From the NCBI GenBank assembly GCA_963810935.1, contig CAWEPK010000008.1, forward strand, positions 288,001 through 352,000: a stretch of DNA of 64,000 bases. The letters run 5' to 3'. Position numbers and translations under genes: made by a program. The notes under the pieces are model-generated. The model was not told where the DNA came from and did not search any database. It saw only the letters and a list, made by a program, of their open reading frames with translations. The first letter of the stretch is position 1. Each line of letters starts with the position of its first letter. Positions 16,865 to 49,004 of the stretch are shown here, piece after piece. The stretch is from an uncultured delta proteobacterium (GTDB lineage: Bacteria > Desulfobacterota > Syntrophorhabdia > Syntrophorhabdales > WCHB1-27).

Positions 16865-16953
16865 GCGCTGAAAAAAAGGCTAAACCATTGCTTTGTGCGG
16901 CTGGACTCGCACCCGAGAAAACGACGCGAAAGGCGCGGAAAGATCCCGCCCCC
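16865..16953. repeat. Intergenic repeat family member A (intact copy)
   Basis: GCGGCTGGACTCGCACCCGAGAAAACGACGCGAAAGGCGCGGAAAGATCCCGCCCC aligns by eye to 47895-47911 joined to 48924-48974, and to 41787-41834. Confidence 0.65.
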
Positions 16954-21166: not shown

Positions 21167-22981
21167 TTGCCTAACAAAAAGAAGAAAGGCTTCATTTTCA
21201 AAAACATCGTAAAGAGCAGCCAGTTCCCCCTGGTGGATGAAGAGAAACCGGAGCTGTTCAAGGGGGTCTTTCCGTACTCGGAGATGGTGCGGGTCAATTT
21301 CGACCACAAGATAGAGTTGATCGACCCGCCCGAAGAGATCTTTATAACGGACACTACCTTCAGGGACGGCCAGCAATCGAGGCCCCCTTTCACCGTAAAG
21401 CAGATCGAGGACCTCTTTAGCTTCCTCCACAGGCTGTCCGGGCCGAACGGCGTAATACGCCAGTCCGAGTTCTTCCTCTATACGGAAAAGGACAAGGAGG
21501 CGGTGGCCAAATGCCTTGAAAAGGGTTACCGCTACCCGGAGATTACGGGCTGGATTCGCGCCAATATAGACGATTTACAGCTTGTCCGCGATTTCGGCCT
21601 GAAGGAGACGGGCATGCTCACGAGCATATCCGACTACCACATCTTCTACAAGTTCAAGAAGACACGCTCCCAGGTGTTCAACGAATATATAAAGATGGTC
21701 GAGGCGACCCTCGAGGCAGGCATCGTACCCAGGTGCCACTTCGAGGACGTGACAAGGGCCGACATCCACGGCTTCTGCGTCCCCTTCGCACAGGCGCTCA
21801 TGGCGCTCTCCGAAGAGGCGAAGATGCCCGTGAAAATTCGCCTCTGCGACACCCTGGGCGTTGGCGTCACTTACCCCGGCGCAGCCCTGCCCCGCTCCAT
21901 AGGGAAGATCATCAGGGCGATGATCGACGACGCGGGCGTGCCGTCCGAGTACCTGGAGTGGCACGGGCATAACGATTTTTACAGGGGCGTCGTGGGAGCG
22001 GCGAGTGCGTGGCTGTACGGCTGCACCTTCGCGAACGGCACGCTACTGGGCATAGGGGAACGGACAGGCAATACCCCCATCGAGGCACTCCTGATGGAGT
22101 ATATCTCGCTCATCGGGGACGACAACGGGGTGGACACGAGGGCGATTACCGAGGTGCGGAACTACTTCGAGAAAGAGGTGGGAATGCACATCCCGAGGAA
22201 CCAGCCGTTCGTCGGCTCCGATTTCAACGCCACGTCGGCGGGCGTCCATATCGACGGCCTCGCGAAGAACGAGGAGGTCTATACATCCTTCGATACGAAG
22301 AGAATCCTCGACAGGCCGATAGCGGTAAATATAACGGACAAGTCCGGCCTTGCGGGCATAGCCCACTGGATCAACGCCCATTTCGCCCTGACCGGCCAAA
22401 ACGCGATAGAGAAAAGCAACCCGGGCGTGGCGAGGATCAATAAACGCATCCTGAAGACATATGAGGAAGGCAGGGTGACGGCCATTTCCGACGAGGAGAT
22501 GGAGCACATGGTCCGCATATACCTGCCCTCCGTCCTGCCTTCGGAATTCGAGGCGTTAAAGAAGCGCGCCTACGACATGGCCGCCCACCTGATAGAGCGC
22601 TGCATCGAGGAGGGCGATCTGAAGAGCATGGCGCCGGAGCGGCAGGAGCTTGTGCTCAACAAGCTCGTTTCCGATTATCCTTTCATCCAGTTTGGCTACG
22701 TAGTCAATGTCGAGGGTGTGAAAGTCACGAGGAACATCACCCAGGCCGTGGATAAAGCAAAGTACGCCAAGATCGACCTGCACGAGGACTTCTCCGGCAG
22801 GGATTGGTTCATAGAGCCGCTGAAATCGGGTAAGATATGGGTCACGGACCTCTATTCGTCGAGGATCACAGGCGCTCTTTGTATAACCGTCTCCGGCCCC
22901 ATCGCAGACGAGACCGGCGAGATAGTGGGGATCCTGGGCCTGGATATTAAGTTTGAGGACTTGACCAAGGCTGAGGAGTAA
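21167..22981 (+). CDS. Re-citrate synthase-like DRE-TIM metallolyase (LeuA/homocitrate synthase superfamily) with C-terminal Cache/PDC-like domain
   Basis: DTTFRDGQQ, RCHFEDVTRADIHGF, WHGHNDF, GERTGN; tail RDWF..TDLYSSRITGALCITVSGPI..VGILGLDI. Confidence 0.8.
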   Translation: MPNKKKKGFIFKNIVKSSQFPLVDEEKPELFKGVFPYSEMVRVNFDHKIELIDPPEEIFITDTTFRDGQQSRPPFTVKQIEDLFSFLHRLSGPNGVIRQSEFFLYTEKDKEAVAKCLEKGYRYPEITGWIRANIDDLQLVRDFGLKETGMLTSISDYHIFYKFKKTRSQVFNEYIKMVEATLEAGIVPRCHFEDVTRADIHGFCVPFAQALMALSEEAKMPVKIRLCDTLGVGVTYPGAALPRSIGKIIRAMIDDAGVPSEYLEWHGHNDFYRGVVGAASAWLYGCTFANGTLLGIGERTGNTPIEALLMEYISLIGDDNGVDTRAITEVRNYFEKEVGMHIPRNQPFVGSDFNATSAGVHIDGLAKNEEVYTSFDTKRILDRPIAVNITDKSGLAGIAHWINAHFALTGQNAIEKSNPGVARINKRILKTYEEGRVTAISDEEMEHMVRIYLPSVLPSEFEALKKRAYDMAAHLIERCIEEGDLKSMAPERQELVLNKLVSDYPFIQFGYVVNVEGVKVTRNITQAVDKAKYAKIDLHEDFSGRDWFIEPLKSGKIWVTDLYSSRITGALCITVSGPIADETGEIVGILGLDIKFEDLTKAEE

Positions 22982-28728: not shown

Positions 28729-29052
28729 TCAATGAATGCCCAGTTGCACCTTGATCGCTTCCTCAACCTTGCGCATATCTTCTTCCGTCAGGACGCCTGC
28801 CCGCTTGAAAAGCCTTTCCTTGCTGACGGTCGCCAATTGGTCCGCCATCCCCTTGCTTTCTTTGCCTTCGAAGGCTACTGCCGCTTCGCTCGGGTATAGT
28901 CGGTCCACGTTGCTGGTAAGGGGAACGACCTGAACGCGGTTAAGAAACCTGTTCGAGGCATCGTTACTCACGATAACAGCCGGCCTCTTCTTCCTGATCT
29001 CTCCCCCTATCGAGGGTTCAAAATTGACCCACCAAACCTCACCGCGTTTCAT
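28729..29052 (-). CDS. mazF: PemK/MazF family mRNA interferase toxin
   Basis: [40 protein letters not shown]. Confidence 0.95.
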
Positions 29053-29269
29053 GGGCTATATCCTTAAAAGTCGCTTCGGCCCATTCCATGGCCTCTTTCT
29101 CTCTTTTCTTGTCCTTCGCCATGTCGGCATAGGATGACTCCAGGTCCGGGCGGACCACGTGCGGCCGAACCAATTCCTGTATGAACCTGCTTATCTTACG
29201 CGGGCCGATTGTTCTGTTCAGACCCTCGTACACTTCCTCGTCTATGGTTATAGTCAATTTCTTCTGCAC
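29039..29269 (-). CDS. Cognate antitoxin (RHH-type) of the MazF toxin
   Basis: GTG start 29269, [28 protein letters not shown]; overlaps the toxin start. Confidence 0.85.
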
Positions 29270-29280
29270 CTCGCACCTCT

Positions 29281-29319
29281 CTATACGTGTACTATACGTG
29301 CAGTGGGGAAAGATGTCAA
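29281..29319 (-). promoter_or_regulatory. TA promoter with tandem operator
   Basis: Minus strand TTGACA-17-TATAGT; 11-nt tandem repeat CTATACGTGTA/CTATACGTGCA covers the -10 box and start site. Confidence 0.75.
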
Positions 29320-29378
29320 CAGCCAATAAGGGGTATGCCTTTATCCAGGGATAACGCAACGGACGTTGCGGGCGATGA

Positions 29379-29873
29379 TCAGCAGCCCATGTAGAACGGC
29401 GCCTCTACTATCTCGAACTCCGACTCCCCCTCTTCCGCCTTGCGCGCAAGCACTTCAAGGAGCCTCTGAAAGCTGTATATATGCCATGGCCCGATGGACC
29501 GCACCTTCTGCTTATTCTCCCAATCCCACGCACTCACCTCGTCGAGGGTCACCCTCTTCTTCTCCCCCGTCTCTTTGTAAAGAACCGTGAGGGCTATCTC
29601 GTACCTGCCGTCTTTCTTTTCATCGCCGCTCTCCTTCTTCCTCTGCGGCCGCGGCGTCCGCGTCTCGAACACTTCGATGGAGACGTCTTCCTCTTTACTC
29701 TTTAATACCTCTTTGAAATTCGCCTGCCAGTCATACTCGGGTCTCTTCAGTACCTTGTGATCGGGCGTCTCTTCCCCGTCCTGCGGGACAATGTAGTTGT
29801 GCCTTCCCCGGTAGATAGGGCAATTCCTGCATCCGGCTTTTGAGAAAGGGCACTTGTTAACGTTTTCCGGCAT
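29379..29873 (-). CDS. Hypothetical protein: N-terminal Cys/His motif plus C-terminal domain ending in -MGC
   Basis: CPFSKAGCRNCPIYRGRH; SD GAAGGA upstream. Confidence 0.75.
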   Translation of the reverse strand: MPENVNKCPFSKAGCRNCPIYRGRHNYIVPQDGEETPDHKVLKRPEYDWQANFKEVLKSKEEDVSIEVFETRTPRPQRKKESGDEKKDGRYEIALTVLYKETGEKKRVTLDEVSAWDWENKQKVRSIGPWHIYSFQRLLEVLARKAEEGESEFEIVEAPFYMGC

Positions 29874-29978
29874 CGCTGTTCCTTCGGTGGTGGAATAAAT
29901 GCACTTGTATACTAATATATGCCCACCTCCAAATCAAGTGAGGGCGGACGTGCAAGCACAGCGGGAACGTCTGTGGAG

Positions 29979-30201
29979 CCCCGATTACTGCCGCAGCGAG
30001 CGCCGAGCGCGGCAGTAATAAAGCGAGCGAATGCGAAGCGCCGAGCAGGGAGGCTCGCCGGGCTATACCCGGTGGAGAGGGTGCTTAACCCCGATTACTG
30101 TCGGAGCGAGTGCCGAGCGCGGCAGTAATAAAGCGAGCGAATGCGAAGCGCCGAGCAGGGAGGCTCGCCGGGCTTTGCCCGGCGAGGGGGCGCTGAGCCC
30201 C
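29979..30201 (+). repeat. Two tandem copies (110/109 bp) of a multi-hairpin element; candidate structured RNA or REP/BIME-like unit
   Basis: Units start at 29979 and 30089 (CCCCGATTACTG...), with identical central blocks and three hairpins per unit. Confidence 0.9.
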
Positions 30202-30211
30202 AATGATAGAT

Positions 30212-30264
30212 GCCCGTCCGTCCTGCCTTCGGGCAATGCTTCCGGCCGGACGGACGGGCCTTTT
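30212..30264 (+). terminator. Branched hairpin with short U-tract (plus-strand terminator-like)
   Basis: 12-bp stem GCCCGTCCGTCC/GGACGGACGGGC, inner TGCC-TTCG-GGCA hairpin, followed by CTTTT. Confidence 0.55.
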
Positions 30265-30270
30265 GGAGGG

Positions 30271-32349
30271 CTAGTTAGTGTGCCTTTTCCTGCCGCGCGC
30301 CAGACCTGCTGCGGCCGGGATTGCGACGGGGAAGAGGAAGAGCAGCGTCATCGGATATTTCACTCCGTAGACAATGGGAGTCAACGCGTACCGGGTCAAA
30401 GTGCGGAGCGCCTCGTGGCGCCTTATATGTTCAGCCACGGGCGGTGAAAGCCGGTAGTACATGTGGACGAACGCCGCGCCGATGGGGTTTGTAAGCAGGT
30501 ATTTGTCCCTGAAGCCCCGCAGCACCATGACCTCGGGCGCAAGGTAGCTGCCGTAGGCCGCAGTGGCGATGAAGCACCCGCCGCCGCCGCCGCCGCCCGA
30601 CCCGCTGCCGGGGTCGGCCGATGCAGAAGCCGAGCCGGGAGCCCCGCCGCTGGTGCTTATTAAGGGCATACCGTTAGCCGGGGCAGCAGAGCCGTTATTG
30701 AATGCTCCCATGTCCCATGCGCCGGACGACGGCCGAGCGTTTCCGTTGAAATCGACTGGAGCGATGCCCCACGTGTTCTGCATAATCGAGAAGACGTTGT
30801 CCGGCACGGCCGGCGGCGTTGCCGCCAGGTTAAGACCCGTACCGATGGCAGAGGAGCCGCCCCCAAGGGTAAAGTCCGCGTTCGCGGAGTTATTGAAGTT
30901 CGCGTGCCAGCCTTTGGTAGCGCTGTCGCCCGAATGGCTGTCCTGACCGCTTGCGGCTACCCAGGAAGCCAGATTGGGCGGCGATGTAGAGTAATTGTAA
31001 ATGATAGTCGCGCTGCCGGATGCTATCGGCGCGATATAGTTGTATGCGAGCAGGGCCTCGGAGCCGCCGCCCTGGTCGAACCCGTTGTAGTCGCCGACGT
31101 ACATGGGCGCCAGCGGGTTGCCGTTGATGCTCGGATTTCCCAGGAGCAGGTCCGCATTCCCCGTGCCGTTCTGGTTCTGATAAAAGATCGTGTTATCGCT
31201 GTAAATACGCGTCGGCCTGGTCGGTGCGTTGTCCCCGTCCTGGTTACAGAAGCTATAGATCCCATCGCCGTTGTTGAGGGCAAAAACGCAGTTGTAGAGA
31301 TATACGCTTACCCCCATATAGATCCACATGCCGTCGTGATAGTTGCCATAGCTGATACAGTTTACGTAGTACTGGCGGGCATTCGGGTTACCCGCGTTGT
31401 CCGTGGCGTAATCGTCCGCGTTCGCACCGAATCCGGAATAGCTCTGTGTAGCAACGCAATTGAGATAAAGGATATTGTCCGCATAGCGTCCCGGCGGCTC
31501 GCCGACGCAGCCCGTGTCGAAACCCCTTCCGGTGATCGCCCATGCACTGCAGTTGACGTAGGCAATATTCCAGGAGTTCGTCGTCCAGAACCCCATATTG
31601 ACATCCGTCCCGCCTTCCTGCGTGCCCGGCGCGTTTCCGATGTTGTGGGCGCTGCAATTCTGGTAAACGCCCTGGGTGCAGCCGAAGCTCTCGTCCCCCG
31701 TGTAAAAACCGCCGTTATTGGCACGCGAGTTTCCGTCGCATTCGACATTGTAGATGTAAAAACTACCCTGGCAATGCAGATAGAATGAATACGAGGCCGC
31801 TGAATAGACCCTCATGTTCTTGACGTTGAGGCCCTGCATCGGGTTCGATTCGGACGGGCCGTCCGCCTCGAATCCCCTGTTGGTGCTGTTCTGCACGTCG
31901 AACCCCTGCGCGCTCGCGCCGTCCAGCGTCACATAGTTCGTGTTCGTAACCTGGATCAGCGCGCTGTACTGGCCCAGGCCCGCGCCGCCGCCGTTAAAAA
32001 CGACGTTGCCCGAGCCCCATGAAGCGAGCCGGGCTATTGTGATGGGGGCCGATGCGGAGCCGCCCGCGTAATGGCCGCTGTCGATGCTGAGCTGCCCTGT
32101 CAGATTGAAGCTCGCGCCCGACTTGACGTAGATCGTGTCGCCGCCGTTGATTGTCGGGAAGCTGCCGCCTGCCGGGTCCCCCGGGATGTGGGCCCAGGGC
32201 GATGCCTGGCTCGTCCCCGGATTGCTGTCGTTGCCTGTCTGGGGGTCCACGTAATATGTCGATGCAGCCGCAAGGCCCGGCAATACAAGGCACGCGAGGC
32301 CCATGCACGACATAATTACGAAGACTTTCAGACCGCTGGAAAATCTCAT
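30271..32349 (-). CDS. Secreted right-handed beta-helix (pectin lyase-like) protein with C-terminal CFI-box-CTERM sorting domain
   Basis: Signal peptide, [15 protein letters not shown], Asn/Cys-rich beta-helix repeats, [47 protein letters not shown] and basic tail. Confidence 0.85.
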
Positions 32350-48797: not shown

Positions 48798-49004
48798 CTC
48801 AGTGGGGAGTTTGGAAAAGGGCCGGGAGATTTTCGACGGGCCACCTGCCCGACGTAAGGATAGGAGGGTTGTCCGCGTTCGTTTTGTAGGAAGAGAGCCG
48901 GAGGATACGTTCTGTGTATTAAAGGACTCGCGCCCGAGAAGACGACACTAAAGGCGCCAAAAGATCACGGCCCCATCCCGGCCCCTCCCCCACCCCACCA
49001 ACGG

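Follow-up and report, generated by a model that had tools for sequence, protein, structure and literature searches.

The array between two minus-strand genes

The stretch of DNA analysed here (hereafter the window) spans 64,000 nucleotides of contig CAWEPK010000008.1 from an uncultured delta proteobacterium, and our subject is a tandem array of hairpin-forming repeats at positions 29961–30264. The array lies between two genes that, as an earlier note on this DNA had stated, are both encoded on the minus strand. One (29379–29873) codes for 164 aa without a family match and has orthologues in the related genomes G001 and G002; the other (30271–32349) codes for 692 aa with a CFI-box-CTERM domain and is absent from this locus in G001. 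Judged by its sequence, the array is a copy of an undescribed, modular, intergenic family of hairpin repeats and not a unique RNA gene.

The two tandem units that the note had described correspond to direct repeats, at 29979 and 30089, with a spacing of 110 nt and 95% identity across 94 nt. A comparison across 119 nt reveals 12 substitutions and one indel between them. Unit 1, like all parts of the array read on the plus strand, consists of a hairpin-1 module (29984–30019), which is the spacer between units and takes the end motif of the preceding unit as its 5′ arm; a linker (30020–30053) with an AAAG foot, a mini-hairpin and a G-rich run; and an imperfect copy of hairpins 2 and 3 (30054–30091). 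In unit 2, a second hairpin-1 module (30094–30129) precedes a core at 30130–30210, made up of linker (30130–30163), hairpin 2 (30164–30186), hairpin 3 (30187–30201) and a right end (30202–30210) that has the family consensus RRTRATTGY and here reads AATGATAGA. The purine-rich linker is identical in both units, and it contains the site at which IS110-type insertion sequences (IS) are inserted in other copies. At about 29954–29982 on the same strand we read a collapsed remnant of a further unit, with fragments of the linker and of hairpins 2 and 3, of which G002 has a longer version. The two units of the note are real, but this third one and the rest of the family had been overlooked. A single-copy hairpin at 30212–30259 lies outside the repeat, behind the stop codon of the 692-aa gene; it goes with that minus-strand gene, and its counterpart is kept beside the gene in G002.

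The differences between the units had been said mostly to preserve pairing. Some do: a C-to-T change in hairpin 1 gives a T·G pair (U·G in RNA), and hairpin 3 carries a compensatory swap between T-A and C-G, both as previously reported. Several others break pairs: in unit 2, hairpin 1 has a G·G at its inner pair, and in unit 1, hairpins 2 and 3 have a C·A mismatch, a bulge and one pair lost. Hairpin 2 as first quoted is perfect in unit 2 only and imperfect in unit 1. Against shuffled sequences, the array region folds with a z-score of −3.15 on the plus strand and −3.10 on the minus strand; since these values are alike, the array locus alone picks no strand. On the plus strand the region ends in a hairpin followed by CTTTT, and a simple scan of 29300–30700 found no promoter-like site. 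No known riboswitch or repeat of the CRISPR type had been recognised at the locus, and we agree: Rfam gave no credible match for the array (three hits with E-values of 1.6–2, far below the gathering scores), and the units repeat whole, without the unique spacers that alternate with constant repeats in CRISPR. Contigs from DNA sequencing runs (four of five runs, two studies) were uninformative, as among the listed pieces none bridges the array and no joint skips it.

A dispersed family of hairpin repeats

A profile of linker, hairpin 2 and hairpin 3 detected 163 core units at 132 loci in the 4.06-Mb genome and none in the reversed genome. As many as 126 of the 132 loci overlap no predicted gene (called with our own gene caller), and 26 carry two or three cores. 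The copies are mosaics in which a few hairpin modules are arranged around a core of ~55 nt, and the units of arrays run head to tail. The genome contains the hairpin-1 module 10 times, every time with a hairpin-3-like end on one side and a linker on the other, and spacers of this type turn the start and end motifs of a unit into short inverted repeats. Most single copies are without terminal inverted repeats, and several module types serve as left ends in the family. Many copies are placed shortly after a stop codon. Between co-directional genes, 66 copies are in sense and 15 in antisense orientation, the window locus being among the latter. According to the earlier note, many scattered, untranscribed copies would reclassify the array as a mobile repeat; the scattered copies exist, and their number supports the folded mobile repeat that it had named as an alternative to an RNA gene.

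Of 18 further genomes from the same taxonomic family, 16 contain the repeat family. Among 151 genomes from across the phylum, more than three matches to the core pattern occurred only in this genome (111) and in G021 (22). An exact-pattern scan of genome contigs gave 31 loci in two uncultured deltaproteobacterial metagenome-assembled genomes (MAGs), which may overlap other genomes compared here and are not independent of them, and a metagenome scan gave at least 120 loci. On viral contigs, two loci were found, both on one contig; since both have bacterial-type counterparts in this genome, they give no sign of a phage origin. A literature search, with most subscription papers and the supplements of PMC2996986 outside its reach, found no description of this repeat family or of allele-like tail duplication beside repetitive extragenic palindromic (REP) sequences.

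Next, we considered folding across the family. Hairpin 2 has 52 distinct arms among 93 copies, and in 44 symmetric arms G·T outnumbers A·C by 29 to 4 (P = 1e-5). Among 20 full-length cores, pairing holds in 98.9% of cells, and changes on both sides occur at 7 of 19 pairs, figures that are inflated by related sequences. The plus-strand folding and covariation proposed from the two units extend to the family as a whole, and the comparison of its copies shows selection for the hairpin structure, on one strand. The loop reads TTT or TTC in 69 of 81 copies, and the three-base loops of the linker are GNA in 26 of 26. Such TTT/TTC and GNA loops are of the DNA type and resemble those of stable DNA mini-hairpins; a literature search on DNA-type loops found nothing. 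Covariation and one-strand folding fit single-stranded DNA as well as RNA.

The repeat has a fast turnover. At the window locus, G001 has neither the array nor the 692-aa gene, and G002 has an array with different modules, one extra unit and an internal IS110 element. Of the 31 MAG loci, 27 are syntenic with this genome, which has a core at 12 of them and none at 15, with remnants at some. Shared arrays vary in the order and number of their modules, and some empty sites retain the end motifs. These results bear on the stand-alone plus-strand non-coding RNA (ncRNA) gene of ~300 nt that the earlier note had proposed for the window locus. Plus-strand folding and covariation throughout the family would suit such a gene, as would the hairpin and CTTTT that close the region. 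However, 131 other loci carry the repeat, the locus is not conserved (empty in G001, rebuilt and IS-interrupted in G002), no promoter-like match was found, and the closing hairpin belongs with the minus-strand gene. We regard an RNA gene of this kind as very improbable.

Another reading is a transcribed, cis-acting RNA, with hairpins in 3′ untranslated or intergenic regions that stabilise, terminate or mark mRNAs for processing; selection would act on the RNA, and mobility would be secondary. The 66:15 sense bias and the many copies just behind stop codons would favour it, as would the 29:4 excess of G·T over A·C, which suits RNA as well as single-stranded DNA. The reading is at odds with the window locus, which is antisense to both neighbours, with the gain, loss and rebuilding of arrays between close genomes and with the dominance of three-base loops, and it leaves unexplained the fixed right end and the duplicated gene tails described below. 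As the primary explanation we judge it unlikely; as a secondary role, a function at the mRNA level is compatible with the explanation that we prefer.

The genome also holds further modular repeat families, for example at C1:50634–50741, C3:114371–114650 and window positions 16897–16948 and 48819–48972; one of them is a long imperfect hairpin of ~125 nt. One module is common to these families and the one described here, and lies inside hairpin 2 of many copies. Elsewhere in the window, a MazF/PemK toxin and its likely antitoxin (28729–29359) are located directly behind tyrS; our gene caller starts the antitoxin at 29269, not at 29359.

Right ends, duplicated gene tails and inserted elements

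Sequence conservation of the repeat stops about 3 nt past TRAT, which makes a sharp right end, most commonly TTGC (47 of 107). At 53 of 283 terminal right ends, the end is followed by a copy of the DNA just upstream of the element: 20 of 96 in this genome, 16 of 101 in G001 and G002 (most but not all pattern matches covered) and 17 of 86 at the metagenome loci. Ends directly followed by another module and tandem re-copies were left out of these counts, and a control with shuffled pairs gave 1 duplication per 1000. The copy begins at +3 in 21 of 33 junctions. There are 35 distinct junctions, of which 29 fall within coding DNA on the sense strand, most of them close to the stop, and 16 come after GA (background 6.9%). 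The duplications measure from 14 to over 100 nt, the longest including repeat modules, and several are identical. Tandem forms (tail, repeat, tail, repeat, tail) exist, as expected from unequal exchange.

With coding frames chosen by hexamer score, 49 of 62 differing codons between tail copies are synonymous (79%), against 36% expected with one copy dead from the start, and 53 of 69 base changes fall at third positions; a count on fewer loci gave 31 of 37 differing codons as synonymous. Because the differences are mostly synonymous, both copies were probably under selection while diverging, as alleles in different lineages would be. The tail copies therefore look like alleles from different lineages and not like a plain target duplication. 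In the cleanest pair of filled and empty sites, the downstream copy differs from the empty G002 allele at 5 positions in 53 nt, and together with what follows it at 6 in 120 nt, whereas the upstream copy differs at 18 in 53 nt. In some cases, such as C5:179303, the upstream copy continues into a different C-terminus that lies outside the repeat.

These data can be set against an ordinary MITE (a miniature transposable element with inverted repeats), moved by a DDE or reverse-transcriptase system with long, variable target duplications whose copies drift apart later. Duplications of this kind are made by IS1549/IS1634-like elements. Several duplications in our set are indeed identical and their lengths vary widely, and hairpin-1-type spacers make short inverted repeats of the start and end motifs. 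Yet the proportion of synonymous differences (79% versus 36%) and the upstream copies that run on into another C-terminus argue against later drift, most single copies are without terminal inverted repeats, and the genome has no match to RVT_1. We consider a MITE of this type highly unlikely.

C8:662341 and C10:308373 (paralogous genes in this genome) as well as L124 and L193 (G001) carry the repeat at an identical place after the same gene tail; in three of them the duplication starts from the same junction. At C3:84535 and L147, a copy behind a tRNA-like 3′ end (the tRNA was called by eye) duplicates its last 17–25 nt, like the scar of an attachment (att) site. For the window gene at 21167–22981, the G002 orthologue (L158) has the repeat and a 35-nt tail duplication, at a place where no core exists in this genome.

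The repeat is a target of two IS families. Five of five IS110-type transposase genes sit in its linker (elements at C7:218207–219130, C8:756096–757019, C10:159333–160256, C18:9825–10748 and C20:36–959; also locus L017:1–1030). They fall into two subtypes whose insertion points lie about 6 nt from each other, and short sequences within a loop predicted upstream of the IS110 gene vary to match the insertion point. IS110 target guides behave likewise (PMC11208160). By this analogy we read the loop sequences as candidate target guides, and the two IS110 types may provide natural guide–target pairs, with the candidate guides shifting with the site in the repeat. The 654-bp IS200-type element (C5:31473, C7:238548, C3:16772, C8:732035, C12:368507, C8:661833 and C16:101391; two copies frameshifted) has the target TAAT, the end TGAT and the hairpin feet TAAA and CAAA. 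Four of these seven copies and one mini copy, a single-hairpin derivative of ~45 nt at C12:417778–417836, are inserted at TAAT in the end of the repeat. Repeat ends hold 83 of the 12,876 genomic TAAT sites, and the enrichment of IS200 there has a P of about 6e-8. The tip of hairpin 2 is identical to that of the right-end hairpin of the resident IS200.

Possible modes of spread and known systems

In distinction from copy number, intergenic position, turnover, one-strand folding, the right end, targeting by two IS families and the long duplications, which are reported above as results, the mode of spread is what we infer. We lean, without great confidence, towards an element similar to REPs and bacterial interspersed mosaic elements (BIMEs) that is moved by single-strand transfer at one of its ends and by homologous recombination at the other. 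The repeat would fold once the top strand becomes single-stranded, and a trans-acting enzyme of the HUH/Y1 type would cut exactly at its right end, after TTGY. DNA from another lineage, consisting of the tail of the same gene and the repeat, would pair with the recipient gene through homology; the repeat would then be linked by its 3′ end to a nearby site on the recipient strand, in many cases one that follows GA, and the left side would be resolved by homologous recombination. The product would read gene, donor tail, repeat, resident tail, an order in which the gene would remain intact. By an alternative route to the same product, an excised single-strand circle of tail and repeat could re-enter by a single crossover. 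Unequal exchange between duplicated tails, together with recombination among copies, could build and rebuild arrays like the one in the window. For TnpA-REP, cleavage at a distance, strand transfer and a potential capture of flanking DNA have been described (PMC3333891; PMC8266576).

Several observations weigh against this mechanism. There is no duplication at 230 of 283 ends, and none was detected at the window array; 19 of 35 junctions lack a preceding GA; and the position at which the duplication starts varies by 0–6 nt. The codon counts include related loci and are thus not fully independent, and a single filled/empty pair is clean, with two others leaning the same way and the rest ambiguous. 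The repeat is oriented with the genes (sense to antisense 66:15) rather than with GC skew (46 vs 33, P = 0.18), whereas IS608 has a lagging-strand bias, of which none was seen here. The earlier note had pointed to a linked HUH/RAYT transposase or reverse transcriptase, for which we found no support: the repeat flanks 0 of 20 Y1 loci from relatives (part of the Y1 matches, in incomplete genomes), the 2468 open frames next to copies included no evident recurrent transposase-like neighbour, and the RAYT-like gene of this genome (322 aa, C8:711982–713015) is bounded by its own, different inverted repeats, whose core has 16 matches in the genome. The resident IS200 was rejected as the mover, as it uses cuts after TAAT and TGAT and the repeat ends 3 nt further. 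Searches for other enzymes gave RVT_1 matches in three of five genomes, with none in this one, and GIY-YIG matches in four of five, in both cases with no link to the repeat seen but the flanks not fetched; Y2 transposases matched in none of the five, where the control was likewise silent.

That no linked enzyme was found would suit a spread without any dedicated enzyme, in which replication or recombination would be stalled by the hairpins, and repair by the host (template switching, or homology-facilitated illegitimate recombination in transformation) makes the junctions and spreads the repeat. ComEC is present in five of five genomes checked, though in 10 of 14 controls too, and end motifs are kept at some empty sites, as after slippage deletions. 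Against this, most junctions fall on a single base of the repeat (+3 in 21 of 33), and TTGY and NNGA share no microhomology, to which the preference for GA is added. We think such a route rather unlikely. By the pairing rule of IS608, the invariant AAAG foot would predict a cut at TTNC, of which the commonest end, TTGC, may be a case, but short-type copies are without that linker.

One-ended transfer, if it is the true mode, would mean that tiny repeats carry the tails of genes from one lineage to another and remodel C-termini. A bolder version, which we offer tentatively and with more doubt than trust, is a gene-less homing element: a folded single-stranded DNA end of ~55 nt that would cut only at its own right end, be placed by homology in the same gene across strains and species, and swap in a foreign C-terminus. 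This would amount to a general prokaryotic route of 3′-end allele exchange, with an enzyme not yet linked to any repeat. Each event leaves a readable scar, made of a fixed end, a preferred target dinucleotide and the donor and resident alleles side by side, so that the spreading step is directly testable by strain comparison and with short oligonucleotides.

Finally, we compared the repeat with known systems. It resembles REP/BIME with TnpA-REP (PMC3333891; PMC8266576; PMC6006769) in its more than 100 intergenic hairpin copies, mosaic tandem arrays, strain polymorphism and single folding strand, and in being a target of IS110 and other IS (5 of 5 IS110, 4 of 7 IS200 and the mini-IS200); the BIME model predicts capture of flanking DNA (PMC3333891). 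Unlike REP/BIME, it has no GTAG or GGAG foot, its feet being AAAG (linker) and GAGG or GTGG (hairpin 2), with GGAG preceding hairpin 3 only as part of the hairpin-2 stem, and its units run head to tail and not as inverted pairs. As far as the accounts of REP/BIME available to us go, the ends after TTGY and GA differ from the cut there between C and T, and the long, allele-like tail duplications set the repeat apart as well. The REPtron, a tnpA-REP gene flanked by the repeat, is a further REP/BIME feature, of which none was seen at the 20 Y1 loci of relatives (a partial set, from incomplete genomes) or at the RAYT-like gene of this genome.

As in IS200/IS605 elements such as IS608 (PMC3333891; PMC3201880), a short conserved site is placed beyond the left junction, the conserved end lies within the right one, and the top strand is folded. 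In contrast to these elements, the repeat contains no transposase gene, the resident IS200 cuts elsewhere, and 53 of 283 ends have long flanking repeats, which IS200/IS605 elements are described in those sources as not making. Class 3 TnpA-Y1 repeats with a CnGA foot (PMC6006769), compared by the available description only, are similar in their high copy number and in that our G-rich core mostly follows CCGA, ATGA, TTGA or CTGA; they differ in that no such gene was found beside our repeat. Classical MITEs differ in their short target duplications of fixed length, as against 14 to over 100 nt here, and the repeat has left ends of several module types.

One-ended transposition of the IS91/ISCR type has one fixed end and a variable captured flank, and at phage attachment sites inside protein genes the gene tail is replaced and the displaced copy differs at synonymous sites. 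Our repeat shares the fixed end with a variable flank and the gene-tail copies that differ synonymously. Unlike both, it is about 55–300 nt long, carries no gene and uses many unrelated genes, and no Y2 match was found (with a silent control). IS91/ISCR one-ended transposition is also named in PMC3333891. The multicopy intergenic sequences of Geobacter (PMC2996986), compared by the available description only, are likewise palindromic, clustered intergenic families in deltaproteobacteria, and the dissemination of REP-like repeats has been called poorly understood (PMC8266576). Set beside these systems, the array in the window is not a new ncRNA but a member of a new dispersed hairpin-repeat family whose insertion scar is unusual and testable.
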